Assembly (NCBI GenBank): GCA_951406725.2
Contig: OX597815.1
Span: forward strand, 75,144,001 to 75,208,000
DNA length: 64,000 nucleotides
Source of the DNA: Octopus vulgaris
Taxonomy: Eukaryota
Direction of reading: 5' to 3'
Shown: positions 7,502 to 54,955 of the stretch, in pieces
How positions within the stretch are numbered: position 1 is the first letter of the stretch
How the letters are laid out: every line of letters begins with the position of its first letter
The notes under the pieces: generated by a model
Database searches by the model: none
What the model saw: only the letters and a program-made list of their open reading frames with translations
What the model was told of the DNA's origin: nothing
Program-made: the position numbers and the translations under genes

Positions 7502-7540
<39 letters not shown>

Positions 7541-7656
7541 GTATACATACATACATACATACATACATACATACATGCATACATGTTTGTGTGTTTGTAC
7601 ATACACACAGAGAAAGACATTGTAATATAATGGTTATACATTTTGTACTGTAACCT

Positions 7657-8425: not shown

Positions 8426-8920
8426 CTTTGGTAAATATGACATTTTGTACGTTGGGCTTCATGTAACAAGAAGCAAATGATAAATAACAAATCGGAGCTT
8501 ACCAGGGAACCACAATCTTTTCCACCACAGATGTGACAAATGCAGGTGTCTCTTGCAGAAGATCTACAAAGAACTTATCACCTATGCTGACACATTCTTT
8601 TATTCCATCATGGAATGTTTCATTGAAATGTTTTACCTTAATAGGGATGCTGATAGACATGTGAAGAAAAAAATCTAGTGAAATCCTATGCCTGAAACTT
8701 TTTAAAGTGAGGAAAGCCTTGCACTACATACATACATAGATGCATACATGCATGTATGCATGCATACATACATACACACATGCATGCATGCATACATATA
8801 TACATATATACATACGTATATATACATACATACATACAAACACACACGCATACACACACACACATGCATACACGTATACATACATACATACATACATACA
8901 TACATACATACATACATACA

Positions 8921-8954
<34 letters not shown>

Positions 8955-9314
8955 CATACATACATACATATTCTTCGTATAGGTATCCTTTGTTATATAA
9001 GCGTAAAAAATAATAAAGACCACAAAGATGCTGTTGTGTAACTGAAAATAAAGATCAACTGTTTTCTGTGTATTTTCTCAAAACACCAAATTCGACAATT
9101 AAAATTGCGGACAGTGACCTCAAGATGAAAGGCAATTTAATCACTGAATAAAATCGTCCTTACGTAGTCTGTATCACTGGTTACTGAGTCAATCAAGCGT
9201 TCATACATCTCGCCATTCTGAAACATTTATCATCGTCAGATAATATTTGAGCCATTCACAAATGAAATCTTTTCATGCCACTAGATTTTAGACACCTTTG
9301 AATGGAACCGTTGG

Positions 9315-9373
<59 letters not shown>

Positions 9374-9790
9374 GACGGAGAGAGAGAGAGAGATGAGAAA
9401 GAGAAAAAGAGAGAGGGGGAGAAGCTAAGGGATAAGGAAAGGGAGCGCTTTCGACGCCTGCTGTATAGCATTGTTTGCATTTTCTTGAAAACAATGTTAA
9501 CAGATGGCTGAATTTCATTGAGATTGTTGGACCTTACAGATCGAGGCAGCGAGGCAAGTCTTTACCTTGAACTAACATGAATGTTTTGCGAATGGCTGAC
9601 ATGGCTAAACGGGTTCCGATTTACTTTTAATTTCCATAATCTTTAGACGCATATGATTGATTCCTGAAATTGTGCCATTTTTTAAGACAAGGAAAAGCTT
9701 TCGTCTTTTGATAATGACATTTTTGAAAAATATATCAAATAATATGCATACATACATACATACATACATGCATACATACATACATGATAT

Positions 9791-10270
9791 ATGATGGCTG
9801 CCCCATCGTTATCGAGTATGGCCACTGCACGAAGCTTAACTGTTATTGGTGCTGTGATCGAATGTGACTTTTATTTGCTTTTTAAGGTTACAGCCAGCCA
9901 TTCAGTTGAGACTCACAGCACTATCAACAATCATGAACAATGTTGTTATCGTGCAATGCCTGTGCAAGAAGATTTTTTTAAAGTGAGCAAAGGCTGTGCA
10001 CTGAGTCAATTGCACTCACTAAGCAACAGCAGCCATAATCCGAAAAGAAGAATAAGTCAACATCATCGGTAACCACTGAGCCGCAGGTTTTATGTCGGAG
10101 TTATCCCAGTTACCTGAGTTACCTGAGTCCTTCACTCCCAATGGTTTAACCGCGCGATCGGGTATTCAGTCCGATTATTTCTATGTCCCGGCGCATGATA
10201 CAGCCTTAAGCCTTAAGAGAGAGAGAGAGAGAGAGAGAAAAAAAAACACATTTATTGGATGGCCGTTGGC
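9791..10270 (-). mobile_element. Non-autonomous RTE derivative (putative 5'UTR joined to 3' tail)
   Basis: 9791-9873 is the reverse complement of the tail at 62578-62657; the rest is GC-richer non-coding sequence resembling an RTE 5'UTR. Confidence 0.5.
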
Positions 10271-10307
10271 TCTCAAGAGTTCCTCCGCCCTTTGACGGGT
10301 TTTGTTT

Positions 10308-10445
10308 TTCTTCCCGCAGGGTGTCCAGTAAACACCTTCCTCACCAAGCAAGCTTGGTGGGGTTGCTGGTTTAGTCGCCAACGGCCCGACCATGCCACAG
10401 GTTGTACTGAGTTACATGTTACCAGTAGCACTCAAAAGTGACCTG
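10308..10445 (+). mobile_element. RTE 5'UTR-like fragment
   Basis: Near-identical to 62420-62555 (cccgcagggtgtcca...caccaagcaagcttggtggggttg..ggtttagtcgcc). Confidence 0.6.
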
Positions 10446-10565
10446 ACATAACATACATACACACATACATACATACATACATGCATACATACATACATAC
10501 ATACATACATACATAAACACACACACACACACACACGCGCGCGCGCACATACACACAGATCTATA

Positions 10566-11020
10566 TGATGATGGCCGTCCACTCGTGACCGTGGAAAACC
10601 ATTGCTGACCTTCAGGAACATTGTGCGCTCTAGGACTAACTTACATTTTGTATTTGCGACTCTGTTGGTGGCTAATGAACCCTGCACTTGACAAGCATAC
10701 ATCACTGCAAACATTGCAGACCAAGCTTTCCCCATTCACTATACGAGCTGTGCGCTTTCGTGCAGCTTGCTTAAGTTCTTCATGCTGGATACGTGCTCTC
10801 TCAAAAGTGTCAATCCTCTCCTTAACCTGCTTCCTCCATCTGTGGCGATGACAGGCATTGTTCTCCCAGTCAGTGTCCTGCATATCACAGGCCTTTAATG
10901 AGGACTTGACACAGTCCTTAAATTGCAGCCTTGGTTTCTGCCGGAGTCGCCTTCCATTCACAAGTTCTCCATAGAGCATCTGCTTAGGAATCCTTCTATC
11001 CTTCATTCTAATAAGGTGTC
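10566..11020 (-). pseudogene. RTE (BovB-like) LINE 3' end
   Basis: HLIRMKDRRIPKQMLYGELVNGRR..KPRLQFKDCVK..CNVCSDVCLSSAGFISHQ* zinc-finger-like C-terminus, short 3'UTR and (CAT) tail. Confidence 0.85.
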
Positions 11021-11514
11021 TCAGTACTGTTGTAATGTTCCAGCCTGCACCAGAAAATTCATATGTGGAACCAGCTATCTTGGTTGAAGGAACAATTCTG
11101 AAAATAGTAGACAAGTTTGTTTTCCTGGGCAGCACACTCAGCCGTTCTTGCTCCCTGGATGATGAAATATCTTTCAGGCTGCAGAGAGCAACTAATTACT
11201 TCGGGTCTATTCAGTCTCGTGTCTGGTCCCAGCATGGCATCACAAAGCAAACAAAAATTGATGTGTATCGTGCATGTGTACTGACATCGCTCCTTTACTC
11301 AGGTGAGACATGGACCCTTTGCAAACGTCATGTAAGGGTCCATGAACGCTTTCATCAGAGATGTCTCTGACACATTCTGAATGTTGGCTGAACCTTAAAA
11401 ACTCCAGACACACAGGTTCTGAGGACAGCTGATATCTTAAGTATTGAGGCGATGGTGCACAAGCACCGGTTACGTTGGACTGGGCACCTTGTTAGATGCT
11501 ATATGGGGAACTTG

Positions 11515-11519
<5 letters not shown>
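11021..11519 (+). pseudogene. RTE LINE RT C-terminal segment, inverted relative to 10566-11020
   Basis: VMFQP..VDKFVFLGSTLS..TKIDVYRACVLTSLLYSGETW..RFHQRCL*..RLRWTGHLV. Confidence 0.85.
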
Positions 11520-11560
<41 letters not shown>

Positions 11561-11567
11561 CATATAT

Positions 11568-12451
11568 TGAAGGGGATGTAAAAAATTATTCGCACTTTCA
11601 TCAAAACTACACTGCCTTCAGCGCTCGCCCATCAACGTTCACCAATGATGCGAAGGTTCAACAAGCTTGAGAGGTGGTTCTGGCAAACTAACGAGGCACT
11701 ATCGTTGTGGTGGAATGTTCTCTGCCAATTAGTCATGGTTTTGCATCCGAAATTATCCACGACAAGCTTGGCTTCCGTAAAGTCTGTGCGAGATGAGTAC
11801 GAAGATGAGACCTAAATCCATCACTTTGAGCCCAAACCCAGAATATAGAGTATTAAGTGGAAACATCCGAAATCGCTAGCGAAAAAAAAAAGAGAAAAAA
11901 TCTATGACTCAACCTTTCGCAGAAAAAGTGATGCTAACCATTTTTGGGCACGCAAAAGAGCCTATAGTGGAACATTACCTGGCAAACGGTCTACAGTATA
12001 AGCTACAGTGAAATACTGGCTGACAATTCACACCAAACGCTAGCAATTCCCACTAAACGCCGAGATCTATTGTCAATGCAAATGTTATTGTTGCACGACG
12101 AAAATGCACGCACACATACGGCCGCCCATAACGTTGAAACCATCGAAAAATTGGGTTTCGAGTTGCTGAAGCACCTTGCTGTAACTCCCCTTCCAACTAT
12201 CATCTCTTTGTACCGCCCAAACACCCTTTACGAGGTCATTGATTTGCTAAGGAGAAGAAGTGCAGCAAGCACTGAGTCACTAACTGAAAACCATCTTTCT
12301 CCGATGGAATAAGACAGCTTGTGGACCGCTGGAGGAAGTGCATCGGAAAGCAAGGAGACTACGTTGAAAAATGATGTAATTGTTCAACCACTGCGTTTGG
12401 TTTAATAGATTACAGAAACAAGAGTATGTATATTTTTTGAGATACCCTCGT
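11568..12451 (+). mobile_element. Degenerate, internally deleted mariner-family transposon
   Basis: LGFRKVCAR, DET*IHHFEP, KVMLTIF and LLHDENARTHTA (DNARPH-like) remnants; ends gaaggggatgtaaaaaatt / ttttttgagataccctcgt resemble diverged TIRs. Confidence 0.65.
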
Positions 12452-12737
12452 TTATATAAACATAAGAATATAAATTTGTATTGTGTGTCTGTGCGCGCGC
12501 CTCTGCGTGCATGTGTGTGCGTGTGTGTGTTTGTGTTTCTATGCATGATGAAAGTCAACCTGTGTCCGAGTACGACCACTTCACCACTTCTTGGAAAATT
12601 TCAAGTTTGTTGAATGTTACCATGGAAACTCCCAAAGAGAGGGAAACCGCATGCCACCTGGATTCCAGCCAGTTTTGGAATTAGGCGAGCTTTGTTTAGA
12701 AATTTCTAGATCCTTTCTAATTAACAGGTAAGTAGTA

Positions 12738-13342
12738 AACACTTTGGGTAGAGAAGGGTATGTTCAAAGTGACTGAGCAGAGACTAGTAGATCAAGCTAA
12801 TGCTATTAAGGGAAGAAAGTGGATGACAAAATTGGAGGTGGAAGAGATCAGAAGAGAACTGAGAAAGAAAGACCAGGCAGTAGGAAAGATAAACAACAAT
12901 ACAGGAGATACATCTCAACCCAAAGAAGAACCTAAAGGAAAAAATAATAGTAGCGCTACCAATAAGGAAGGGACAACTAGCACCAGCGATTTAAGTGATT
13001 TAAGGGAGGAAGTTCAGAAGATTTTAGATGAGTTGCAGAAAGTAATGAATAAAGAAAAAGATTGCCAGAATTAAAAGGTACCAACAGAAAGAATTTGCTA
13101 GATATGACTAGGAAAGTAGATTCTGTTATCAGTAGGGTAGATACTAAATATATAAGAGACACTAACTTATTGATCTATGCAGGAGGGGTAGTAGTTAATA
13201 GAAGATCAGATATTCCACAAGGAGAGATTAGAAAAGAGCAAATGTGGAAAAGGAGACAACAAAATAAAGTGAAAACTTTAAGACAAGATCCGAGTAGAAT
13301 AGAAGCCTGGAAACTGAATAAGTTAGGAAATACAAGACTTAA
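12738..13342 (+). pseudogene. R4/Dong-like non-LTR retrotransposon, N-terminal fragment
   Basis: TEQRLVDQANAI..LEVEEI, DTNLLIYAG and WKRR..KVKTLRQD.SRI motifs typical of R4-clade ORFs. Confidence 0.7.
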
Positions 13343-14156
13343 ACCTCTGTTCAGCGTCATCTTCAACAACTTGGAAAGGTTCCTAAACTTGGAAAATGGG
13401 TGCCTCATGAATTGTCCGAAAGTAACCGCAAATCCCGAGTTGACATCTCCTCTTCTCTCCATTCTCGCGAACTCATTTCACCCTTTTTGGATTGACTTGT
13501 GACTGGTGACGAAAAATGGATCTTCTATCGAAATGTTAACCGTCGTAAACAGTGGCTTGGTAAAAGGGAAAAAGCTCAATCACAACCGAGACGGGAACTT
13601 CATGGGAAAAAGGTTCTTCTCTCTATCTGGTGGGATTGCAAATGAGTAATTCACTTTGAATTGTTACCACCTAATACAACAATCAATGCTCAAGTCTACT
13701 GTCAGTAATTAGAGCGTTTGAACCAAACTTTGAAGAAAAAAAAGACCCGCTTTAGTGAATTGAAAAGGAGTGATGTTTCATCAGGACAATGCGCGACCCC
13801 ACACTGCAAAGATCACATCACAGAAGATCAAAGAGCTTGGTTGGGAAAAAATTCCTCATCCACCTTATTCTCCCGACCTTGCTCCTTCAGACTACCATTT
13901 GTTTCGTAGCTTACAGAAACATTTGGGGGACATAACTTTCGTAAGCCAGGAGGAGGTCGAAACTGACATATCAGAGTTCTTCGCTTTAAAACCAAAAGAG
14001 TTTTATATTGATGGGATTAAAAAGCTTGTAAATAGATGGAAGGAAGTCATAGATAATCAGGGACAGTACATTGATGATTAAATTTCTATTAAATATAACA
14101 TTTGATCACTTGCTTTCTTTATTCAAAATTCGGACAGAACTTATGGGATGACCTGA
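13343..14156 (+). mobile_element. 5'-truncated mariner (DD34D) transposon inside the R4-like LINE
   Basis: WVPHEL, VTGDEKW, HQDNARPH and YSPDLAPSDYHLF motifs; 3' TIR cagaacttatgggatgacctga followed by TA (14157-14158). Confidence 0.9.
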
Positions 14157-14158
14157 TA

Positions 14159-15060
14159 CATAGACAAAGCAGTTCTAAATGAAGTATAAGCTAGAAAGAA
14201 CAGTCTAACAATAGCATGGATTAATTATAAGAAAGCCTATGACATGATCCCACACTCATGGGTAAGTGAATTTTGAGTATATTCTGTATAACAGACAACA
14301 TAAGAGGATTAATTAGCTTAAGCATGAAGAAATGGAAAGTAGATCTCTATTCAGGTAACACAGTCTTAAGGAAAGTTAATATCAAGAGAGGAATTTTCCA
14401 AGGGGACTCGTTTCCCCCCTTCAATATTTGTGTTATGTTTGATCCCCCTCAGTTTAGTATTAAGGAATGCAAAAGCAGGATATCAATTCAGAATTAGTGA
14501 GAGTAAAACTAACCATTTGCTCAACATGAATGATCTGAAGCTTTTTAGTAAGAATGAGCAAGAGATAGATTCCTTAAGACGCTTCAGCAAAGATATAGGC
14601 ATGGAATTTGGCATAGACAAGTGTGCAATATTAGTCACGAGAAGGGGACAGGTAGTAAACAGTGAAGGCATCCAATTATCAGATGGCCAGACATTAAAAC
14701 ATTGCAAGGAGGAGAGAATTATAAGTATTAGAATCTGACAGAGTACTAACTGTAAAAATGAGGTACATCGGAAGGGTAAAGAAGCTAATGAAATCAAAGC
14801 TAAATGGTCCGAATTTAGTGACGGCTGTAAATATTTGGACAGTATCGTTACTTACATACTCAGTAGCTTTTGTAGATTGGACAAAAACTGAATTAGCAAA
14901 GCTGGATAGAAGAACTAGGAAGGAATTCAATATGAATGGAGGATCCCACCCAAAGGGAAGAGTTGCAAGATTATACTTAACTAGAAAGGAAGGTGAAAGA
15001 GGGCTAATATGAGCAGAAGACTGCGTGAAGTAATCTAGAATGGATATAGACTCCTATGTA
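14159..15060 (+). pseudogene. R4/Dong-like LINE RT fragment
   Basis: AWINYKKAYDMIPHSW, IKRGIFQGDS, NHLLNMNDLKLF, DIGMEFGIDKC, RLYLTRKEGERGL. Confidence 0.85.
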
Positions 15061-15098
15061 GTTAATATATGTATATATATGTATATGTATGTATGTAT

Positions 15099-15151
<53 letters not shown>

Positions 15152-15189
15152 TGATAGATAGATAGATATATGTAAACTATAAATATTGA

Positions 15190-15545
15190 TGCAGGCGTGG
15201 CTATATGGTGAGAAATTTACTTACCCATCATATGGTTCCAGGTTCAGTCCCCTACGGCAAGTGTCTTATGCTACAGTCTGGGGGCTGACTAAAGCCTTGT
15301 GAGCAGATTTGGCACACGGAAACTGAAAGAAACTTCCGTTTACACACACACATACATGCGTGCGTGTGTGTGCATTTTTGTCCTCCACCACTGCCTGACA
15401 ACCGGTGTTGGTGTGTTTACATCTCCGATAGATTGTGTACCAGGCTTAAAAAAATTAGCGCTAGGGTCGATCCGTCCGACTAAAATTCTTCAAGGTGGTG
15501 CCCCAGCATTGCCACAGTCAAATGACTGAAACAAGTAAAAGATAC
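15190..15545 (+). mobile_element. SINE family B
   Basis: ggcgtggctatatggtgag...ggttcagtccc head and gcc.cagtcaaatgactgaaacaagtaaaag tail. Confidence 0.75.
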
Positions 15546-15548
15546 AAG

Positions 15549-15579
<31 letters not shown>

Positions 15580-16849
15580 TACATATCTATAATACATAGC
15601 ATATATAAAATGCATAACATATATCATATATATCTATATGTAATTATATATGTATATATATCGGTCTCACATATATATATATATATATCATGTACAATAT
15701 GTGCGTGTGACCAAGTGTGTGTGTGTGTGTGTGTGTGTATGAATGAATGTGTGTGCGGTGCGCGCGTGCGTCTAAGCACTTGTGTATTTGTGTATTGGCA
15801 TTTTACAACTTACTTATTATCTCTCGTAACCCTATCATCAACAGTTAAGTTTCTAGACAATTCTTTGCTACACATTCTCTATCCTTCACCGCCATCATAT
15901 CTTAATTTCTGTAACTTTCCTTCATTTATTCTTTCCTTTATCCATTTACATTGATTCAGTTATTGAGAATTTACCACCAGGGAAAGTAACTAATAACTTA
16001 TTCCTTCCTTCCAAGTGTTGTCTGCCATAAACAAAGTTCATATGAAAATCATCCATTTCTACTTGATATTTTGTTATGCTCTGTGTTGTTTTTCTTTTAT
16101 TTCTAATACCACTACAGGCTGTCTGCTCCCTAAATCATCCAGCCCAAACACCCGTTATTGATACTACTCAGTAGATTTTCTCCCTTCCTCTTCACTCTCT
16201 CTCTTCGTTTGCCCACAGGAAATCTACCAGCTACCGGACGATGACACCGAATTCTCTGGTTGAAGCCATGGGATTAGCGAAGGAAATTTCTATTGATTGA
16301 GTTATTAACCTGCTGACAAGTCTAGCATAAATAATTGATAATTATCGTGCGTATGTGCGTGTATATGTGATTCTATTCGTGTGTGATGCGTCTATGCATA
16401 TTGGTGTTTACGTGTAAGTTTGTGCCTGTGCGTGCGTATGTGAACGTATCTGCGTTCGCCTGTTGCTCTGATGCCATGGAAAGTAATGTAAATCATTTAT
16501 GAATGATAAAAGACGCCATTACAGTTACTGTCGACAGTTAATTTAATTGTTGAAAGCGTTACGTTAGGAACTAGTAGAGCTTGGTTTCAAATCTAGTTGT
16601 TTCTCCTTCGTTTAACCAACACACAAAAATTAGTTGTGTGAATGTGTAGATGTAGGTGAACTGACAAGAAATTCCTCTAGTATCTAATAAGTCAGAATTA
16701 ACAATATTTAACACTTACAACAATAAAATACCAACAAAAATAAATATACAATGAGGGCAAAAACGCTAGTAATAAATGTAATAGAATCACAGGGTTAAGT
16801 CAGGCTATACACAAATCCATTGTCGGAATATATTCTTATATTCGTTTAT

Positions 16850-17120
16850 TTATTTCAGTCTTTGGACTGCGGCCATGCTGGGGCACCGACTCGAAGAGTT
16901 TAGTCGAACATATCAAACCTTAGTACTTATTTTAAGTTTGGTACTTATTCCATCGATCTCTTTCTGCAGAACCGCTAAGTTACAGAAATATAAAAACATC
17001 AAAAGCAACGGTCGGCCCGGGATTATAGTAGAAGACATATGCTCATGATGTTGCGCAGTGGGACAGAACTCGAAACCACAACGGTGCGAAGTGAATTTCT
17101 TTACTACACAGCCATGTATG
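16850..17120 (-). mobile_element. SINE family B, diverged and deleted
   Basis: tttcagtc..gactgcggccatgctggggcac and tatagtagaagaca..gcgcagtgggac segments. Confidence 0.65.
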
Positions 17121-17845
17121 TGCCTACATTTAACTTTCATCCACTTTCCTCTATACAACTAGAAATACGAGAAATCTCGCTGCTCAATAACAGACCATGT
17201 GATCAGTGGGAAGACAACGATCGAAGGATTTCGATGGTTTCATCCGACTTTACAGTGTTCCAGTTTAACTAATCACAGGATCGATGTAGTGATAACAATC
17301 TGCAGCTACACAGATCTATATGATTATATATGAGTAACGTTTGACTCTGTTTTCAGTTCGTAAGCAAACGGAAATTAATATCTCTCTCATCTAAGAAACT
17401 AATCAACTGCAAATGCCTCATTTCTGTGACTGGATAAATATAAATACTGTTCAGATTCGCACCGAAACTTTTAAATCGTTATTTGAATTCACACACGCTA
17501 TGTTGGTAGTTTGGTATTCTATTCTACTAATCTTTCCGCTTTTATCTGCTCAAATATCAGATACTGTTTTATTAATTTAATATCAGTTATCCTGCAAGGC
17601 GGCGAGCTGGCAGAAACGTTAGCACGCCGGGCGAAATGCTTACCAGTATTTCGTCTTACCAGTATTTCGTGTGCCTAGAGTAGAGAAGAATATCAGTCAA
17701 CCTGCTTTATATCAGTTTAGCCTTAGAGAGCGTTCCTCGAGAAAATGGAATTTTATCAAAGAATATAATTAATTCCTTTTCTAGGTACAACGTTTTGTAT
17801 TTTACATAAGAGTAAATTGGGTACTGAAATATTGATTTTAAATTT

Positions 17846-18348
17846 TTTGACACAAGGCCAACAGTTTCAGGGGAGAGAGTAAGCCAGTCATATCACCCTT
17901 AGTGCTTAACTGGTACTTATTTTATCAACTCTGAGAGGATGAAAAGCAAAATCGATCCCGGCGGAATTTGAACTCAGAACGTAAAGACAGACGAAATGCT
18001 GCTATGCATTTCGCCCGGCGTGCTAACAATTCTGCCAGTTCACCGCCTTTGGGTATTGGAGTATTAAGGCATATCGTAAGGTGGTGAGCTGGCAGAATTC
18101 TTAACGCGCCAGACGAAATGCTGCTAAGCATTTCTCCCATCCTTACATTCTGAGTTCAAATACCGCCGAGGTCAACTTTACCTTTCATCCTTTCGGGGGT
18201 CGATAAAATAAGTACCAGTTGAGTACTGGGACCGATGAAAGATAAAGTCGACTTTGGTGGTGTTTGAACTTAGAACGCAAACAACCAGAATAAATGCCGC
18301 TTAGCAATTTTTCCGGTGCGGTAACGACTCTACCAGCTCCCCGCCTTA
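17846..18348. mobile_element. Cluster of three SINE family A copies (-,+,-)
   Basis: 17846-18048 minus, 18078-18235 plus, 18236-18348 minus; A box TGGCAGAAT and B box GAGTTCAAAT. Confidence 0.8.
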
Positions 18349-19342
18349 CCGTTACTCATAATATACTAAGCAATAATATCAATTTTATATTTAATATTGT
18401 CTCAATCATGTTATTTATTGTTCATATCTTATATTGAACATTTTTCAAATTGTTAATATCCTATATTTACTCTAATATCCTATGTTCATATTTAAAATTT
18501 TTCATATTCTACACAAACACATATTTATAAGCTACGCTATTCTGATGTCAATTTATTTATATAAATATTTTCAACTTTTGGCATTCGACATTAATAAACT
18601 GTATGTCGACCGAGATCAGAAGATCTAAGCTGAGAACCACTAGCAGCAACATTATCTATAAGTAGAGAAAAAGCTTTCGCCTAGCTAACTGAAATTGCGA
18701 TGCGGTTTCCATTTGCGTTTGTAGCTATTTACTCCACTTACGACGACATTAACAAAGCCAAGATCATAAGATCTAAGTTATCATCCACCACCCGTAGTAA
18801 CGTTATGAATAAAAGCTTTAGCCTAGCAAAGTTGCGAAGCAATTTCGATTTGCGTTTGTAACCATTTCACTTCTCTTACGTCGCTAATACTCCTGATAAA
18901 GAAACGAGAATAACATACTATCAGTAGGACGCCGGAGCTAATGTAACACCCCATAGCTGCAATAGTAAATTCTATCAAGGAGTAAAGCTTATCACGTTAA
19001 AGAATTGCTGGTAAAATGTTAAGGTATTTTTTGAAGAAGGCTTCTAAAGTGGAAATGATATGTGTATATAATAATCAAGCTACGTAAATTTTGGAAAGTT
19101 GATTAGATCCGGAAACATCAGAATATCTTATCGCGTATAAATGGAAATTCTCTGCTACAATAATACATGTTGCAAATTATAGATAATGAAAATAGTGGAA
19201 AAATTTAAGATAAACAATGTGATACAGCACCGTATGAAATAAAGTGAAAATAATAAGTTCAATACAGACTCCAGTAGATTATGGTTACCAAAATAGTAGA
19301 GAATGAGTTTAAATTACTTCAGCCAACAACAACAATATTAAC

Positions 19343-19555
19343 TTTTTTCAACTATAAGCATAAGACCTGAAATCTTGGTGGTGGTGGGGAGCTAGTCGAT
19401 TATATCAACCTCAGTATTCAACTGGTACTTAATTCGTCGACCTCGAAAGTATGAAAAGCAAAGGTGACCTCGGCGGAATTTGAGCTGAGAACGTAAGGAC
19501 GGAAGAAGCGCTGTTAAGCATTTTGTCCGCCGCGCTAACGATTCTCCCCAATTCG
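19343..19555 (-). mobile_element. SINE family A
   Basis: agtcgattatatcaacc..actggtactt..gacctcggcggaatttgagctgagaacgtaag. Confidence 0.75.
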
Positions 19556-19563
19556 TCGATTTT

Positions 19564-19626
<63 letters not shown>

Positions 19627-19893
19627 GTAATTATTATTACACTAATAACACACACACACACACACACACACATTTATATATATGTATACATATATGTGTG
19701 GTGTGTGGGTGTGTCTTATTAAATACACGGCCGTGTTCAAATTCCTATTTTAAATTTTTCGTTTTTCTTAGTTTTTTTAATAGCTACTTTGGAATGGTAA
19801 GTTTCTAAATTCCCATTTGACATTTCCAGACCTTCACAACCCTATTTTCAAGAATTAAATACATCTGCTCTTCCTCCCTCTCTCTCTCTTTTG

Positions 19894-19953
<60 letters not shown>

Positions 19954-20399
19954 TTTTAAACTGCATCCGGTTGTGTGGTACGGGAGTTCCAAGATTTTGA
20001 GGAGTGTGGACCCAGTGATTTCTTATATAGCTACCCTACCTTATATTTATAGATGGTGTGTGGAACAGGATATTGTTACGTCCGTGCCTTTCTAAATAGC
20101 TTAAATTACGCTATACCAAGACTATGTCATGAACTGGTCGTGCTTACCCCAAGTCCACTCAGTGAAAAAAAAAAATTGGATATAATAAATTATTAGATTA
20201 TTTTGAACAAAGAATAATTCTTTCTCATTTTGGCACAAGGCCAGCAGATTTGAGGGGATGAGAAATCAATTACATTGACATCTATACACAACTGGTACTT
20301 TTTTTTATCAACGCTGCATAGATGAAAGGCAAAGTCGACCTCGGCAGCATTTGAACTCAGAATGTAAACAACCGGAAAAATACCAGGGTATTCAGCTCA

Positions 20400-20668
20400 A
20401 GATCATAAGGTCGTGAGTTCGATTTCTGGCGGCGCGTTGTGTCTTTGAGCTAAACACTTTATTTTTCGTTGCTCCAAAAATGAGTAGTACTTGTATTTCA
20501 AAGGGACAGCCTTGTCACATTCTGTGTCACGCTGAATCTTCCTGTGAACTACATTAAGCATACGCGTGTCTGTGGAGTATTCAGCCAGTTGCATGTCAAT
20601 TTCACGAGCAAGCTGTTCCGTTGATCGGATTAATTGGAACCCTCCATCGTCGTAACCAACGGAGTACC
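20400..20668 (+). mobile_element. SINE family C
   Basis: gagttcgatttc B box; body matches 49220-49396 (tgtcacgctgaat..tgtctgtggagt..cgtcgtaacc.acggagt). Confidence 0.75.
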
Positions 20669-20773
20669 AGTAAACATTTTGTGAGGTGCAGTAATGAGTC
20701 TGCCATCTCGCCGCCTTACATTTTGGACAAAGCATAATGCTTAGTAAGATTGTACAAATAACCATAAAATAGG

Positions 20774-21237
20774 CAATAATAAATCTTAGAGCGAGTTATA
20801 AACAGTAGCTGCAACACATCGTGACGTATATTTGCCATTTAAATATGGCTAACCCCTAAGGGTGGATGCTACTGTAGTTTGTAGCCCCAGGAGGACACCT
20901 CCTCCAGCTGGCTATAGACACACTTTCTGTGCCCTATCAGTATTTGCAAAGGGAAGCCATCCTTCCCGTCTTCAACTTATGATACACACGGACTCGAGTT
21001 TCTGAGTATTGACCCGTCATCGGCGTGTGACAATCACAGTTGTCGATGAAAAGTAGGTTCCCTTCGCAAATGCATATCCTTTTTCCAGTATCGTAAAGAC
21101 ACTGATATCGAAAAAGTGTAAACAAGCAATAATAAATCTAAGAGCGAGTTATAAACAGTAGCTGCAACACATCGTGACGTATATTTGCCATTTAAATATG
21201 GCTAACCCCTAAGGGTGGATGCTACTGTAGTTTGTAG
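20774..21237 (-). mobile_element. Retrozyme-like element A: 1.3 copies of a 353-nt unit with a hammerhead ribozyme and TSD
   Basis: 113-bp direct repeats at 20773-20885 and 21126-21238 (one mismatch seen); flanking duplication CATAAAATAGG at 20763-20773 and 21238-21248; no coding ORF; HHR inside. Confidence 0.8.
20985..21029 (-). ncRNA. Type I hammerhead ribozyme (U4C variant)
   Basis: Minus strand reads CACACG-CCGAUGA-CGGGU-CAAU-ACUCA-GAAA-CUCGAG-UC^CGUGUG: 6-bp stem I, stem II, palindromic short stem III and a GUC triplet. Confidence 0.75.
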
Positions 21238-21876
21238 CATAAAATAGGGTGATACAATTATTTATTCTGTTATGAAATGTTTTGTAATCGGGACTTGATA
21301 CCCAGTTGCAGATATAGTTAAGGGCTTATTCTGTAGTGTTTCAGTACACAGCTTTAAATTTATCGCGTAATGGATATAAGATTATTTAATAGTCATGCCT
21401 TTCTCAAGAGAATTCGTAAAATCAGCGAAAGTACAAAAGTTACTTCCAAAATTTAAATCAGGTTTTTGAATTTGGTATCCGCTCCCGAAAATAACAAAAG
21501 GGACATATCCATTAAAAACTAAAAAAATCTGAAAGTAAAACAATAACAACAGATCAACGTCCCGGTGTATATCAGGTTACACGAATGAGAGGTGAAATAT
21601 GGTGCGTGTAACTTCAGTTAATTAGACCGAGGTGTGACAGGAAGCTGAGGGGCAAACTGTAACATCTGTGATTTTTTTGTGCGCGCGCACACACACACAC
21701 ACATGCACATGAGCACACACAGACACTTAATCGTACGCGCGCACTCACACACTCACACTCTTCCAGCCAGTCTGTCTGACTGGTTCTGTATGTTTATATG
21801 TATATATCAATGTATATGTACTACCTCTCCACATACATAGACACACATATAGGTATACACATACATGCATACACGC

Positions 21877-21913
<37 letters not shown>

Positions 21914-22504
21914 TATAGATATATGTATGTGTGCATATATGTATATATATGTATGTGTGCATTGAGTGCATGTATAAACATACATACATTTATGTGTGCA
22001 TGTATATACATACATGCACACATATATGTATGTATGTATGTATGTACTTCTCACACAAGTCGTCTCGGCGTTATACAAGGCGGAGTAGTGGTGGTGGTGG
22101 TGACAGTTGCCAAAGGCGAGGTCAGCTACACCAACAAGAACAAGAATTACTGCAGCGCACCGTTATCGCCACAACCACCACTCGTACTAGACAACAACAA
22201 CAACAAAAACAAACAAACAAAGGATGCAATAAAAGCAAGGACAACAGCGACGATGATTATAACAACCACAACATTAAGAAAAGTAACAATAAAAACAACA
22301 AAACTAACACTGATATAAAATAAAGTGATGACAATGACGAATGTAAAACAAAAGCTAAAATAGAAATATAAAGAGTATTTTTTTATTCTTTTACTTGTTT
22401 CAGTCATTTGGCTGTGGCCATGCTGGAGTACCGCCTTAAAGGGTTTTTTTACCGACGAAATCGACCCGAGGACTTATTCTTTGCAAGCCTAGTACTTATT
22501 CTAT

Positions 22505-23608: not shown

Positions 23609-26312
23609 AACAAAAGAGGAGGTGTATTTCAACGCAAGAAGAAACATAGGAAAATTTGTTGTCGAAAATGCACCTAAATTTAAAATACTTGTAATTGTTT
23701 TTAGATAAATTTATTTACATACACGCTAAACTAGTTCCAACAATATTCTTTGTTTATCAGAGGTAAAAATTTAAAATTACGAATTAGAAAAAACATATTT
23801 AAAAGTTCTAATGTTTACAAGTTTCAAAAATTTGAAATATGATTTAAATATTCATCACATTCAATAATATAAAAAATGTAGAACATCTTGTTTAAATGCA
23901 CAAAATTCAATAGTGTTAGTAGTGATCGATAAGAAATGTGTATCATCAAAGTTTCGGTCATACTAAGTTAAGAGGGAGGAAAACAGGGGAGAAATGAAGA
24001 TAATAAAAAAGGGTTTTGTTTACAGTTTCTGTGATTCTTTTCCCGTCGTATGCAGGGACTTTCGTTTGTAACGGTGGTTTTTGGAATCCGGTGAATTTAT
24101 AATTTTTTCCGAGAACGGATCTGATTTTTGAGTCGTTAAAGTACTAGTGACGTCTTATTTTTCTGGTGGTCAAGTTTGTCGTTCTGCCTGGTTGGCTTCC
24201 CTGTGGGGAACGGTCATCAGCCGTTCCGGTAGGTTGATTCCCTTAAAGGGTCATTTTGTTGCATTTGCTGAAGTTTGGTTTGATCGGAAGTAAAATTTTA
24301 TTGGTCTAGAGTTAGGTGACGTCAGCAGCTGGTGTTTGTATGGTGAGTAGGAGTTGCGGTTTCGAAACCCGCGTGTCTGTTGTATCTGGTTGTTTTATTA
24401 TTTTTTTGTGGAGAAATTAGGTCTTTTTTCCTTTTTCTCTTTAGTGTTTTTTCTCCTTTCTAAAGGATATTCAGCTGTGGTTTATGTATTGTAATGAGCA
24501 TACTTTCCTTATTTAAATGGAATTGGGTTGACGTTTTTTCCGGTGCATTGATAGAGAGGGAAGATTTGGTATTTCGATTTTATGTTTGCGGGGCATTGGT
24601 CTAGGTGTTTGCTTACGGGTCGTGGGGTCCCGGATTTGTTGCCTGTGTACCATTTTCTGTCCCTCAAGGTCAAACTAGTTTGACCTATGTAGTCTCCACC
24701 ACACCATCCACATTTGAGAACATAGATTAAGTTCTTCGAAGCACAGGTGAAGTGATTTTTTATGGTAAAATTTTGACCTGACAAATTTGTATGTTAAGCC
24801 CTCTAAAAGGAAGATGCAAGTCTTGCAGTTAAGGCTGTTGCACTTTTTGACAAGAGGGTTGTATTTTTGGTGGGTGATTTGGCGCTGGTGAGTAACCTTT
24901 TTAGGGATTGCTTTTAAGAATCCTATGTGTTTCCAGTGCCTTTTTCATTCGCAGGTCATTCATAAGGAGGGGTATGTTTTGGTGGATGATGTTATATGCT
25001 TCCATGTTCCTCAGATTGTGTATTGATACGTAAGATAAATTTTTAAGTGTGTCATGGTGTTTTCTTGTTTTTCGTAACTCTTGGATGTCTGTCATTTTTG
25101 CACGTTCTATTCCGTTTTTTATTAGACTAGCCAGTTATTTTCTATCTAGTAATGTGTTTTTAAGTTCTTAGAGTCGCTTTTCTTGGGGTTCCGGGATTTG
25201 ATGCAATCGTGCAAATTCTTCTTGGTAAGTTGAACGGTATATTTATTTTAGTATGTTTTGGGTGGCAGGAGGAGAACAGAAAATATTGTTTTAAGTCCGT
25301 TGGTTTGAAGATGTTGGTTTCAATTTCAGTATCACTGTTTATGATTAAGATGTCCAGGAAGGGTAGCTGTTTGTGGTTGTATTCCATTGTGAACTAGATA
25401 CTGTGGTTAATGCTGTTGATTAAGCTTTTAAATTTTGTGAGATGCTCAATGTTATGTGGCCACAAAATGAAACAGTCATCCTGGTAGCGTTTCCAGTTGG
25501 TGAGTAAGTATTTTTGGAAGTTGTCTCCAAATTTCAGTCTAGCGTGCTCGTATTTTTGGACTTCCAAGTATGCCATGACAAAGATAGTAAAAGTCGGGGC
25601 TACCCTCTTTCTCATCGCCGTGCCCGATTTTTGTCTATAAGTGTTCTTATTGAAGTTGAAAAAGAGGGATCTTCCTTTTCTGGACATATTTCTTGACAGT
25701 TGCAATGTAATTTGTCGAGTTTGTTCGTTAAGAGAGCGAGTTTTGAGTTGATGACTTGTAGTTCACACAAGATTTTCTCGAGTGTCGTGTTATCCTGTTG
25801 TTTGTGTTTGGGTGGCATTTTCGTACCTAGCATGGTAGATATATATAACAAAAGAGGTGTATTTCCACGCAGAAAAATATAGGAAAATTTGTTATTGACA
25901 ATAGACCTAAATTTGAAAACCTTGTAATTGTATTTAAATAAATTAATTTACATACATGCCAACAATATTTTTTTATTTATCAATAGTAAAAATTCTAAAT
26001 TACGAATTAGAAAAACATGTTTAAAAATTTCAATGTTTACAAGTTTCAATAATATGAAATATGATTTAAATATTCATCACATTCAATAATATAAAAGATG
26101 TGGATCATCTTGTTTAAATGCACAAAATTCATCAGCCGTTCCAGTCGATTGATTCTCTTAAAGAGTCATTTTGTTGTATTTGCTGAAGTTCGGTTTTGAT
26201 CGGAGGTACCATTGATAAACAAAGAATATTGTTGAAACTGGTTTGGTATGTATGTAAATAAATTTATTTAAAAATAATTACAAGTTTTTCAAATTTAGGT
26301 GCATTTTCAACA

Positions 26313-28000: not shown

Positions 28001-28177
28001 AATGAAAGACAGAAGATGGAATATACGAGAATGTATTAATCACGACAATTGTTTCGACACATCTAGCATCGATACCGTGCATTACCAGTAAGTTACCAGG
28101 TGTAAACAATTCGTTTTATTATCCATTATATATATATATATGTATGTATATATATATATATACAATGTGGTATTGCG

Positions 28178-29374
28178 ATGGGTACCAAGGCTGAACCAGT
28201 CCTTGCGAACCTCATAATGGGTTTCTTCGAACTATCACTCTATGAGATATCACGTCAGAAATTTGAACATGTTTTCCACACCTACCTAATGGAAAACTGG
28301 AAAAGGTATTTGGATGATTGTTTCATCATATGGAAAGAATCTTATGAAAAGCTTCTGGAATTCAAAACCATACTGAACAACATACATTCCAACACCCAAT
28401 TCACTATGGAATTCAGCAAACATCATCTCCCTTTCCTTGATCTCCTAATTATAAAAACACCTAAGAAGCAAATCATAACAGACATCTACCACAAACCTAC
28501 AGACTCACAACAATACCTCCTCTTTAGTTCATGCCACCCAAAACACACCAAGACAAATATCCCTTTCAACTTAGCTAAAAGGGTATGCACCATTGTCTCG
28601 GATCCAAAAACTCGAGAAATACGCCTTCAAGACCTCAAAAAAACATTATTACAACGCCAATATCCCTCCACCCTTATAGAGTATGGAATAAAACGCGCCA
28701 AAGAACTAGACATTACACTGAAAACCACCCAACCCAACAACACACACAACCCCAAAATACTTCCATACATTTCCACCCACAACCCCAAAAACATCGAAGC
28801 ATACACCACAATCATACAAAACCTCAGTCTACTGTCAACAGACCCAAAAATGAAAAACATTATAAATACACACAAAATCCTCAAATGTAAAAGGCAACAC
28901 AAATCTTTAAAAAAACTCTTGACAAATGCCAAACTTCACACACCACATCCACCCCCAGTAGTTAAAAAATGTGCACGCCCAAACTGTGGCACCTGCCCCT
29001 TCCTACTTGAAGGCTCTGAATTTATCTTCAAACAAAGAGCGAAGTTTAAAATCAAGACCAACTTCTCCTGTTCCTCCGAGAACCTTATCTACGTTCTCAC
29101 ATGCGCCGGTTGCCAACATAATTATGTTGGACAAACGAGCCTCCCTTTACGTAAAAGAGTAGCGGTGCATAAAGAACAAATAAATCTCCCGGAATACCGG
29201 CAAATCCCACTGAGTGACCTCATAGACTCATGCGCTAATGACAAAAATCCTAAATTCTACATATTCCCCTTCTACCAATGTAAAGACGGAATCACCACAC
29301 AGGAGAGAATTAACAAGGAGAATCTCTTTATTGAAAAATTCAAAACGCATCTTAATATGCAAACTCCTCGTTGA
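28178..29374 (+). CDS. PLE polyprotein C-terminal half (reverse transcriptase, thumb, GIY-YIG endonuclease), 398 aa open
   Basis: GIAMGT..ANLIMG, WKRYLDDCF, LPFLD, YHKPTD, C..C..C zinc motif and LIYVLTCAGCQHNYVGQT...R...H; the N-terminus is missing, so it is unlikely to be functional alone. Confidence 0.9.
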   Translation: MGTKAEPVLANLIMGFFELSLYEISRQKFEHVFHTYLMENWKRYLDDCFIIWKESYEKLLEFKTILNNIHSNTQFTMEFSKHHLPFLDLLIIKTPKKQIITDIYHKPTDSQQYLLFSSCHPKHTKTNIPFNLAKRVCTIVSDPKTREIRLQDLKKTLLQRQYPSTLIEYGIKRAKELDITLKTTQPNNTHNPKILPYISTHNPKNIEAYTTIIQNLSLLSTDPKMKNIINTHKILKCKRQHKSLKKLLTNAKLHTPHPPPVVKKCARPNCGTCPFLLEGSEFIFKQRAKFKIKTNFSCSSENLIYVLTCAGCQHNYVGQTSLPLRKRVAVHKEQINLPEYRQIPLSDLIDSCANDKNPKFYIFPFYQCKDGITTQERINKENLFIEKFKTHLNMQTPR

Positions 29375-37797: not shown

Positions 37798-37914
<117 letters not shown>

Positions 37915-37916
37915 AG

Positions 37917-38536
37917 AGGCTTCCAAATAGGAAAGCATTGTGCTAGAAAGAGCTGTAGAAATCTCAAAAACCACAAAAAAAAGGATAAATTCTCGAAAGG
38001 AATGAAAATTAAACGTTTACCATCTCAACTATTTCCCAGGCCATGGTTTCTAACTATTTCTAGCAAAAAAATATTCGCTGAAGGCCAGTTTTCATCAGTA
38101 GGATAGCCTTTAGATTTCAGACACACAGACAGCCAGATCCACATGTAGAATTAACGGTTTCAAACCACTGCGCAGACGCAGATTATACCCTATGTATCAT
38201 GTTTAAATATTGTTTGATAGATTTGTTCGAAATTTTTACCGGCATCCTCTCTGTCGCCGGGTATAATCTGCGTCTGCGCAGTGGTTTGAAAAGTTAGGAT
38301 ATACAAACCGCTAGTTCTACATGTGGATCTGGCTGTCTGTGTGTCTGAAATCTAAATGAAAACTGGCCTTCAGCGAATATTTTTTTGCTGGAAATAGTTA
38401 GAAACCATGGTCTGGGAAATAGTTGAGATGGTAAACGTTTTTAATTTTCATTCCTTTCGAGAATTTATTCTTTTTTTTGTGGTTTTTGAGATTTCTACTG
38501 CTCTTTCTAGCACAACGCTTTCCTATTTGGAAGCCT
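37917..38536. mobile_element. Foldback MITE with ~275-bp inverted arms, inside a family B SINE
   Basis: 37917-38190 is the reverse complement of 38259-38536 apart from small indels; ends AGGCTTCCAAATAGG / CCTATTTGGAAGCCT; SINE halves at 37575-37790 and 38540-38650. Confidence 0.9.
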
Positions 38537-39389
38537 ATTTGGTTTCCATCTGACAAATTATACTCACAAAGCATTTGTCAGCCTGAAGCTATAATAGAAG
38601 ACACTTTTATAAGACAAGCGCAATGAAATCGAACCCAGAATAATGTGGTGTTCCATGGCAGCCTAATTTCAGTAGGGCTAATCAAAATACATGTTTTTAC
38701 TTCTGAATTTCTTAATCACACGGTTGTGTGTGTGTGTGTATTTGTGTGCGTGTGCGTGCGTGAGGGTATCTTTGTGTTCGTATTTTGACACTAGGTATTG
38801 CTTAGCAGCAGGTGTTACTTTGTTTACGTCTCCGTAACTTAGAGCCCAATAGAATAAGTACCAGATTTAAAATAAGTACTGGGGTTGATTTCTTTGACTT
38901 AAGACCCCAAGGCAGTGTGTCAAAAGGACCGCCGTTCAAAGAGCGAATCAAATAAAAAGATGAAAGAACGTGAAAAATAAGCAAAAATTCTAACGTAACA
39001 TTTTTATAACTTTACGTCATTTATGAAATACAAAATGTAAACGGATTCATTAAAGCTATTCTGTCTCAAAATTCCATCTGTTTTTGCGTTTTATGAAGTG
39101 TAACATTGGAGCAGGGATGTCTGAAAAACCTCCCACTCTTGTTGTTGCGATGCATTTAAGCTAGTGAAGTCAGACTGGCAGTAACGGCGTCTTCATGTAG
39201 GTAATGTTTTATCGGTGTTTACATTCTTCTAGTTAGCCTCATGGTTTGAAGAGGTGCACCTCGGGCATTTGATGTTAAAAAATTTATCAACCTGTAAAAG
39301 AAAGGAAGCTTTTTTGCCACATCCTGTTGTATTACTCCTAACAACATGACATTGATAACAAAAACAACAATAGCCATAATGGTTTCTGG

Positions 39390-52274: not shown

Positions 52275-53818
52275 GTAGTATTATGTGTTTTTCTTGCTTT
52301 TCTTTCTGTTTTCGGTGTGGTGTTCAAATTAGTTCAAATAGTGTTGTTGTCATCCTCTTTGTCTTATTTTCTCTTTATTTACCACTACCACCACTGCCGC
52401 TCCGCCGCCACCGCCGCTCCGCAACCGCTGCTGCTGCCGACTACTACTACTATAGCGATGGCACGTGACCCATTTGTTAGGGTGTTGGGCTCACGACCAT
52501 AGGCTCGTGGGTTCGATTCCTTGAAGTAGCGCAGTAGCAGAATGTATCCTTGAGCAAGGTACATCATAACACGCTGTCTCACCATTCTGTTGCTGCATTC
52601 TGTATATATACATTTTGAAAGGACACCAATCAATCACGAAATTACGTGTAGGACAGCTAGCGAGCTTCACAGTCATCACTAATAGCACTTCAGCTCCTTA
52701 CAGATGAACTAAGTCTTATAAAGCAGTTTGTCATGGACAAGGCTCAGTTCCCTGTGCACTCCAGAGGACCAACATTTCGTTCGACCATTTGGTCGGCACT
52801 CTATTGCCTCGAACAGCTGTGACTCTTATACTTGAAATCAACAGAGACAAAAAAAAAAAAAAAAGAAAAAAAAACAGAAAAAAAAAACATTGTATCTGCC
52901 AAAAGTTTTCTCTACAATGATACATCTTATTCTTTTGCCAATTCCCCAGTCAATCAAATAGTTTTCGTCAATGTCGTTATGATTTGGCGTCTTCGTCTCA
53001 GAAACTTTACTTCTTTCAAGAATTGATGGAAGAGAACAGTCAGAGAAATTTTCCTACAAATATCTTATCTCAAATTAGTCCTCTCAAAAATTCTTAAATG
53101 TTATTTTATTGCTAACTGTTTTCCTGGTTACTGATAATCGAATGTATTCTATTGTCGATTATCGCCGAAATATATTGATAGCTTTCTTCATTGAAGCACA
53201 AATCAAATAACAAACTGCTTCCACCCCAATAGTGTTGTGAATATATTACCGTCTTTTGACACGGAAATAGTAAATATGGTAGAATAAAGGTTAACTGCCA
53301 TTGAACCATAACAACAACTTCATTTCGATTCTTAATTGCAGCCATTTTATTAGTTATGTATATATGCACGTGGGAAAGATACAACCGCCTTAACATCACT
53401 GCATCGAAATCCTATCAAGTATCTAAGGTGTGAAGTGGACACATTTGACTCAGCTTTACTATCGTTGCTCAATGTTGTGTAGACTTTGTTTTGGCCTCTA
53501 CTATCTTTGTGAATACTGGCCATGTAGGATCTTATACAATGGAAACGTTTACAGCTTAACAGACAACACAGACCACTCAGCTGCATTGGTATTACTGGTA
53601 AAGACACACGACATGAGATTGAATCACTTACAAAGCTAATAGGGATAAAGGTGTGGTGATTCCTGACGCGTTCTCATGAAATGCATCTTGGTTGCGATCG
53701 CTTGAAGAAGAAACAGATAATTTGAAAGGTATAATTTTGTAGCACACATACGCACGCGCATACACACATTTACATACATATATGTGCATATATATTACAT
53801 ATATATGTATATAGGCAT

Positions 53819-53860
<42 letters not shown>

Positions 53861-53899
53861 TTTATTGTATATACGTGCATATATGTGTGTGTGTATATA

Positions 53900-53929
<30 letters not shown>

Positions 53930-53938
<9 letters not shown>

Positions 53939-54719
53939 TTAATAAGGGTGAGAGAATTAGATACTAATTTAATAGTATATTTATTCAACACCAAGTGGCC
54001 TAGTGCTCCGAGAAACCTGGATTATTATAATATTTTATAACATATTATAATATTTTTACAAAATAAATATAAGAGAGTGGTCACTATATTGCTCACTCTA
54101 GCACCAGTTAATCCAAAAGGTTTCAACCACGAAAATACATGTTTCCCATGAAAGTCAGTACGATTGTTAGCTCACACGGACAGGGCAAATAAAAAATAAC
54201 AAAAATACAGATTATTTTGGGACAATTGTTTCGCTATTAATGAATTAAATGTAATTTTACTTACAAAAAATCCATTTGTAGCTCGTCAGCCAAGACTATC
54301 TGGATGAAATCCACTCAATCACACGCCAGATTTTACCATAACGATAAATACGCGTGTGGTTCAATTGATTACATCCGACGTTATAATTCAAAATGCCCCA
54401 ACCAACAGCGCGCCAAACTTTCACGGAAAACAAATACAGCATTTAGAAATAAATGCAGCATAATTATAATTAATTAATAAGGGTGAGAGAATTAGATACT
54501 AATTTAATAGTATATTTATTCAACACCAAGTGGCCTAGTGCTCCGAGAAACCTGGATTATTATAATATTTTATAACATATTATAATATTTTTACAAAATA
54601 AATATAAGAGAGTGGTCACTATATTGCTCACTCTAGCACCAGTTAATCCAAAAGGTTTCAACCACGAAAATACATGTTTCCCATGAAAGTCAGTACGATT
54701 GTTAGCTCACACGGACAGG
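53930..54719 (-). mobile_element. Retrozyme-like element B: 1.5 copies of a 535-nt unit with a canonical hammerhead
   Basis: 255-bp direct repeats at 53930-54184 and 54465-54719 (no mismatch seen by eye), in (TA)n, non-coding, HHR in the unique part. Confidence 0.8.
54208..54302 (-). ncRNA. Type I hammerhead ribozyme with intact core and extended stem II
   Basis: Minus strand reads CAGAU-AGUC-UUGG-CUGACGA-GCUA...UAGC-GAAA-CAAUUG-UC^CCAA-AAUA-AUCUG; predicted cleavage between 54221 and 54220. Confidence 0.85.
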
Positions 54720-54877
54720 ATATATATATATATTTATGTATCTCTCTCTCTCTATATATATATATATATGTATATATATATACATACATACATACATATA
54801 TATGTATTGATGTAAAATAATAATATTTATTTAATTTGTGTATATGCATATATTTTCTATATATACATGATATACAA

Positions 54878-54955
<78 letters not shown>

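Follow-up and report, generated by a model that had tools for sequence, protein, structure and literature searches.

The window analysed here is a stretch of 64,000 nucleotides of the Octopus vulgaris genome (contig OX597815.1), whose minus strand carries, between two microsatellites, an insertion with a predicted hammerhead ribozyme (Table 1). The sequence-only reading of the window had reported two apparently identical 255-bp direct repeats lying 535 bp apart, with no coding ORF and with (TA)n on either side; the repeats are exact (53930-54184 = 54465-54719, period 535), the longest ATG frame touching the element is just 63 aa and runs into the microsatellite, and the flanking arrays lie at 53788-53933 and 54720-54955. 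Unit positions are numbered u1 to u535 on the minus strand, u1 being the first base past the predicted cut (54220). The window copy is a single arm that ends at the long (L) 3' end and is 5'-truncated at u37. The unit has a GC content of 32%, i.e. below 50%, and most other copies are one G shorter than the window copy (unit range 534-536 bp). With (TA)n on both flanks, a target-site duplication, longer than 4 bp in those animal non-LTR retrozymes that have one, is not distinguishable at this copy.

Table 1. Features of the insertion and its flanks (window positions; u, unit position)
Feature	Position	Strand	Remark or basis
Whole insertion (locus L070)	53930..54719	-	790 bp = 1.48 turns of the 535-nt unit
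Upstream partial turn (u37-u291), one 255-bp repeat	54465..54719	-	not an LTR: length differs from copy to copy
Second 255-bp repeat, downstream	53930..54184	-	exact repeat comparison
Fixed 3' end of the L type at u291, abutting (TA)n; putative reverse-transcription start site 1	53930..53945	-	genome-wide junctions
S (short) fixed 3' end used by other copies, u161-164; putative start site 2, internal here	54057..54060	-	genome-wide junctions
130-nt "tail" spanning both start sites; putative protein-recognition region	53930..54059	-	ends and analogy to PMC11167929
Type I hammerhead, 2-bp palindromic stem III, predicted cut 54221/54220	54208..54302	-	motif scan and fold
Stem I, UUGG / CCAA	54293-54290 / 54220-54217	-	motif inspection
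Distal stem I, CAGAU / AUCUG	54302-54298 / 54212-54208	-	motif inspection
Core CUGACGA	54289-54283	-	motif inspection
Long stem II, three helices, ~50 nt	54282-54233	-	motif inspection
Core GAAA	54232-54229	-	motif inspection
Microsatellite target, (TA)n, on the element's 3' flank	53788..53929	.	array itself runs 53788-53933
(TA)n-rich microsatellite, 5' side of the element	54720..54955	.	repeat annotation

Hammerhead motif and predicted fold

A complete type I hammerhead (CUGACGA, GAAA, GUC, stems I and II) had been described on the minus strand, and this description stands. GAAA is followed by ACAAUUGU and next by GUC, at which the cut is predicted; the motif is the sole match of a strict hammerhead scan in the 64-kb window, and the same scan gave 0 matches in 60 dinucleotide shuffles on both strands. 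When folded as a circle, the unit is predicted to reach -145.8 kcal/mol (z -6.6 vs 60 shuffles), and in the circular monomer stems I and II form with pairing probabilities of 0.72-0.99 and stem III with 0.01. The Rfam check proposed earlier was negative, with no hammerhead family reported (cmscan, E<=10, 53935-54719), a result that the length of stem II, about 50 nt, probably explains. The whole-window Rfam scan returned only microsatellite-driven miRNA matches among the 150 listed of 336. The unstable stem III of the modelled monomer would fit cleavage as a dimer, as described for amphibian hammerhead motifs (PMC7229834); eight of nine assayed Xenopus retrozymes showed no cleavage.

A young family of dispersed insertions

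The genome searched comprises 2.80 Gb in 227 contigs. The unit gave at least 222 matches in it (best 40 of 1,144 candidates scored), with 96-100% identity among the 150 matches listed, and a 32-nt stretch of the hammerhead occurs in 2,064 exact copies (control 0). At least 785 insertions are dispersed over many contigs, arrays reach 15 units, and the family is diverged by about 1%. A local duplication or an assembly artefact with a chance motif, either of which the sequence-only reading had named as fatal to its proposal, is refuted by these hundreds of loci on many contigs; the lineage structure of the loci and the presence of the unit in runs of seven studies add to this, and leave such an explanation a negligible probability.

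The family is a young, dispersed, non-coding animal non-LTR retrozyme with a type I hammerhead, as had been supposed, and thus a known kind of element. Like the animal non-LTR retrozymes (Cervera and de la Pena 2020, PMC7229834; Li, Clavereau and Pollet 2026, 10.64898/2026.07.22.740005; see also PMC7761336), it has one hammerhead in each unit, dispersed non-coding tandem copies, a GC content below 50%, no fixed-length LTR, a self-paired predicted circle and coexisting Penelope-like elements (PLEs). Unlike the retrozymes of PMC7229834, whose units are 150-450 nt, it has a 535-nt unit and a stem II of about 50 nt; the unit length falls within the 51-972 bp range of 10.64898/2026.07.22.740005. 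Plant LTR retrozymes (type III hammerhead in LTRs, 4-bp target-site duplication) are not matched, given the type I topology and the absence of a fixed-length LTR. The accessible text of PMC7229834 (supplement excluded) and of 10.64898/2026.07.22.740005 names no cephalopod family, and a literature search conducted mostly outside subscription journals, and without Repbase or Dfam, found no publication that deals with cephalopod retrozymes or with PLE tails in retrozymes. For Octopus vulgaris, a repeat annotation of 2026 (PMC13282606) lists 31 Penelope-like families with recent activity, and the words "ribozyme" and "retrozyme" do not occur in its main text as accessible.

Two sets of loci were compared. 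The first consists of 72 loci (the 40 best matches and 32 picked by hammerhead pattern) and is biased by that choice; the second consists of 60 further loci picked by the L 3' junction, 12 of which were selected for absence of the exact hammerhead pattern. Variant counts exclude 80 of the 535 columns (homopolymer, AT-palindrome). L121 entered the counts as a one-armed S locus after removal of its minus block, although the junction lists show both L and S there, and L122, L260 and L262 have one junction common to all three and are probably not independent.

Two fixed 3' ends and paired inverted arms

The RNA-5' ends of the copies are scattered over the unit, and the RNA-3' ends sit at two fixed sites 130 nt apart. 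L ends, in which u291 is joined to TA, form 785 exact junctions genome-wide, and S ends (u161-164) form 308, with a control of 0 in each case. The circularly permuted start points expected from the sequence-only reading were accordingly found at the RNA-5' side and not at the RNA-3' side. Fixed ends had also been named there as the mark of a plain pseudo-LTR; such ends do exist, but they match the start-site ("tail") signature of PLEs rather than a plain pseudo-LTR, which strengthens the link to these elements. S ends mostly read ATA past u161 where the unit has GTA, as would be expected if the TA primer pairs with one G-T wobble.

Two inverted arms meet at their 5' ends in 41 of the 72 loci, with 38 L+S pairs, three pairs with one odd end, and neither L+L nor S+S; the other 31 loci are single-armed (17 L, 14 S). 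In the L-picked set, where 40 of 60 loci are two-armed, no partner arm has an L end: among 37 resolved cases it is S in 34 and odd in three, and in the other loci it is cut by the edge of the retrieved sequence (three), absent (19) or unresolved (one). When both sets are pooled, L+S accounts for 72 of 78 resolved two-armed loci and the same site is used twice in none. Snap-back copying of the first cDNA was rejected as a general route to this arrangement: the offset between the inner 5' ends varies from 7 to 525 nt, across the whole unit, and both arms are longer than one unit in 19 of the 41 two-armed loci.

A similar arrangement is described for PLEs, whose insertions include a copy in inverted orientation, truncated at its 5' end, and have at one end a tail of 30-40 bp (Craig et al. 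2021, 10.1101/2021.04.23.441226; Arkhipova et al. 2013, PMC3846280). For the Poseidon element PAc of Anolis, in vitro work identified the tail as the stretch between two internal start sites of reverse transcription, found that both target strands are cut and extended, and predicted the protein to be a dimer (Frangieh et al. 2024, PMC11167929). The octopus family resembles PAc in having two internal initiation sites that bound a tail, an AT-rich target and the use of both strands; PAc differs in being autonomous, with a tail of 30-40 nt and no circle reported in the text of that study as accessible. The non-autonomous Chlamys elements such as MRC1 (Craig et al. 2021) are found in green algae and have a 3' end similar to that of autonomous families, and most Chlamys elements, unlike the retrozyme, have no hammerheads. 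Within the accessible text of the published retrozyme accounts (PMC7229834; 10.64898/2026.07.22.740005), two fixed start sites, paired inverted arms and per-array haplotypes are absent.

Penelope-like elements of the same genome

Mobilisation of retrozymes by PLEs has been proposed from co-occurrence and from pseudo-LTR (pLTR) similarity (PMC7229834; 10.64898/2026.07.22.740005). For the octopus family it is very probable, since the same anatomy of ends and arms is found both in the PLE literature and in the resident PLEs. At least five Hydra-clade families (CxCX5C, DKT) are present in the genome, four of them with open frames of 717-1091 aa. Their target is (TA)n, and their arms stop either about 20-40 or 105-157 nt past the hammerhead, with one of these ends on each arm (five resolved loci; 7/7 pairs; 6/6 pairs from one family), so that their two end sites are about 70-120 nt apart, and their hammerheads have the same long stem II and the same four-base palindromic loop III as that of the retrozyme. 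The retrozyme hammerhead aligns with those of two Hydra families with scores of 43-48, compared with shuffle means near 21 and 0 of 300 shuffles reaching these scores, a match that the core motifs partly force.

The (TA)n target, the build of the hammerhead, the inverted 5'-truncated arm and the two 3' ends are thus similar to those of Hydra-clade PLEs (10.1101/2021.04.23.441226). Unlike those elements, the retrozyme has neither a reverse transcriptase (RT) nor an endonuclease frame, and its start sites lie 161 and 291 nt past the cut as opposed to about 35 and 105-157 nt. Homology of its tail to the Hydra families was rejected as not significant, and no sequence similarity of the tail to any autonomous family was detected (p 0.1-0.9); blastn against 50 GIY-YIG, 20 Hydra and 30 further-Hydra-family loci gave only short matches at chance level. 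On balance we lean somewhat towards a Hydra-clade partner. A young Neptune-like PLE family with a 781-aa frame was rejected as the parent: it shares the target and the pairing of arms, but its tail is 40 nt long, its sequence does not match and the scan found no hammerhead in its pLTR; its protein is the lesser candidate for the enzyme.

Another possibility is that the retrozyme is made up of tandem pseudo-LTRs left orphaned by an autonomous PLE family outside the sample. This is very improbable: although the hammerhead resembles those of Hydra pLTRs and only the best 150 of 6,136-22,376 candidates were scored in each protein search, a screen of the 72 loci showed no arm continuous with a PLE frame or attached to one for RT plus GIY-YIG, as the sequence-only reading had anticipated, and arms of up to 15 units there reach no ORF. 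The PLE fragments near retrozyme loci are 0.3-1.9 kb distant, and a microsatellite and unrelated sequence intervene between the arm and the best placed of them (L142).

Several resident PLEs were observed in passing. A very young Hydra-clade family (L211-L218, L181-L210) has a 717-aa frame, a C-for-U variant of the hammerhead and a tail of about 70 nt, and 150 of its 150 scored matches are 99-100% identical over 177 aa. A Neptune-like PLE at L104:544-5760 has identical 504-bp pLTRs and an extra upstream frame of about 479 aa, and is preceded by ATTGG and TGACGTC repeats, which we take to resemble promoter motifs. In the window, Neptune-like fragments at 24548-25663 (-) and 28163-29362 (+) are inverted head to head and about 55% identical to the 781-aa frame.

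Template of reverse transcription

Diversity within a locus is 0.24% vs 1.25% between loci (34 loci with at least three turns), and both arms are identical at diagnostic sites in 29 of 33 loci, with about three expected. At sites covered by at least three turns, 140 variants are fixed, 91 occur in a single turn and 12 are partial. Thirteen locus-private variants are present in every turn, ten of these in both arms (seven of the 13 come from L151), and minority variants are common to both arms at the same turn in 1 of 64 cases. Copying passes the predicted cut site with few scars: 255 of 262 unit-to-unit junctions across it are identical and one has an indel, and the arms that reach it read through in 30 of 31 cases for L and 22 of 24 for S (52/55 in total). 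Of 40 S-arm 5' ends, four lie no more than 10 nt from the cut, vs 1.5 expected if they were uniform; these figures come from the end-picked set and replace a count of 0/113 from the 72-locus set, which was set aside because the choice of those loci was biased.

One circle copied repeatedly would explain the haplotype uniformity, the private fixed variants and the scar-free cut site in a single step. As far as the genomic copies can tell, uniformity and read-through favour rolling-circle copying over the use of uncleaved multimers, and 1.48 turns of a repeating template is the best reading of the window copy, which had been described as a circle read 1.5 times round. Our main reading, to which we give a probability of about 60%, is that the family is a young non-coding type I retrozyme with two 3' ends separated by 130 nt, and that a PLE enzyme, rolling round a 535-nt circular RNA, inserts it into (TA)n.

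The same PLE machinery and start sites could instead be used on a long uncleaved read-through transcript of an array, with growth and homogenisation at the DNA level and with circles as by-products. There is in vitro precedent in a PLE for which hammerhead cutting is dispensable and unprocessed RNA is the main substrate (PMC11167929), a few partial variants agree with it, and homogenisation of arrays after insertion or during assembly is possible. We consider it unlikely. Single-turn variants amount to about 0.5 per unit in existing arrays, yet the arms do not share 63 of 64 of them and few recur between loci; a private variant can be fixed in as many as 10 turns spread over the two inverted arms, which requires a bottleneck of one monomer; and arms of 11-15 units imply equally many uncut ribozymes. 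A template of cleaved linear monomers, turned into multimers by repeated template jumping of the telomerase-related RT, is very improbable, since 52 of 55 arms pass the cut on first encounter, the junctions neither gain nor lose bases, and the single haplotype of each array speaks against jumping among many molecules; on its side are the slight excess of S-arm 5' ends at the cut and the existence of mosaic loci, in which template changes can evidently occur. These mosaics (L033, L063, L150) have one turn from another haplotype, which in the sequences suggests template switching between RNAs or later gene conversion. Two further arrays are non-uniform, with T247C in 4 of 13 turns (L069) and C11T in both arms at the same turn (L039).

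Predicted pairs of the circular fold are kept by 16 and broken by 16 of the fixed variants, vs 12 kept and 45 broken for single-turn variants (p 0.005), and two pairs are changed on both sides (G300A with C317T; G125A with C144T). If the modelled fold is correct, the better compatibility of the fixed variants points to selection at the RNA stage. Single-turn changes in the 72 loci are also skewed to G>A on the ribozyme strand (23/87 G vs 10/76 for C>T, p 0.027), possibly from RT error or from deamination of single-stranded cDNA.

Proposed cycle

In the rolling-circle reading, tandem copies would be transcribed and cut by the hammerhead into monomers, perhaps as a dimer via the palindromic stem III, and a ligase would close the monomer into a circle. 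A PLE protein, most likely of the Hydra clade and probably dimeric, would nick both strands of the TA repeat, with one target strand priming cDNA at u291 and the other at u161-164. The number of turns copied would differ between cDNAs. Head-to-head joining of the two products, both truncated at the 5' end, would give a two-armed insertion, and absence of one arm a single-armed one like the window copy. We suggest tentatively, as a more specific form of this cycle, that a dimeric Hydra-clade PLE enzyme primes both TA strands on one circular ribozyme RNA, giving two rolling-circle reverse transcriptions at once.

In the literature as accessible, the way in which animal retrozymes move has been proposed and not shown, and the way in which PLEs build inverted arms with a tail at one end is called undefined. 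If the proposal is true, every insertion preserves a snapshot of one circle and the family gives direct genomic evidence for circular-RNA retrotransposition in an animal, and dual priming is a simple explanation for the inverted-plus-tail structure of PLEs. The type of element is unsurprising; its value, as measured against the accessible accounts, is an unusually clean footprint of a mechanism so far only proposed, as the family is about 1% diverged and offers hundreds of insertions with resolvable ends and a PLE signature without coding capacity. The genome also holds near-identical intact PLE frames, and these few candidate enzymes, together with a 535-nt RNA and two predicted start sites, make the mechanism testable.

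Contigs from sequencing runs and possible RNA editing

More than half of the words of the unit are present in 20 runs of the seven studies, none of them on record as RNA. Contigs from four runs, whose RNA status is a guess, span the whole unit and the unit-to-unit joint, in which a circle, a tandem transcript and DNA look alike. All four, which come from four studies, have minus-strand A-to-G changes at u134 (54087) and u62 (54159); among genomic units, G is found in 0 of 344 at u134 and in 4 of 407 at u62, where the change is fixed in all three turns of L138. In contigs of one of these runs, A-to-G changes also cluster on the plus strand. In the contig sequences these changes look like A-to-I editing, which would be expected from the long duplexes that inverted arms would form; the alternative is that other animals carry these alleles.

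Informative sites are A/G in 16 cases vs C/T in seven (p 0.026, one-sided, post hoc), fixed A>G changes affect 16 of 128 A vs 10 of 164 T for T>C (p 0.045, one-sided, post hoc, polarity uncertain), and several A/G sites recur on the tree of units. Edited circles written back into the genome would give such an A-to-G excess on the ribozyme strand, a bolder addition to the cycle that we offer as a lead only and consider quite unlikely. Selection on the fold explains the same bias, since a change from A-U to G-U keeps the pair and a change of U to C breaks it.

Other ribozyme-bearing or palindromic repeats

The window contains a second retrozyme-like element at 20767-21238 (-), with a 119-bp direct repeat (period 353) and a short hammerhead variant at 21029-20985 (stem I CACACG/CGTGTG, CCGAUGA core, palindromic loop III UCGA, GUC). 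An imperfect palindrome of 625 bp at 37914-38539 adjoins a TA run and is possibly the two-arm stump of another PLE-type or MITE-like element. Minimal hammerhead-like motifs (YUGAAGA, short stem II, GAAACGUA) lie within dispersed repeats at 23425 and 43904 (+) and at 3167 (-). Further unrelated type I hammerhead families were met by chance in the flanks of eight loci (L074, L078, L113, L163, L169, L173, L178 and L180), from which it appears that the genome holds many families of ribozyme-bearing repeats.
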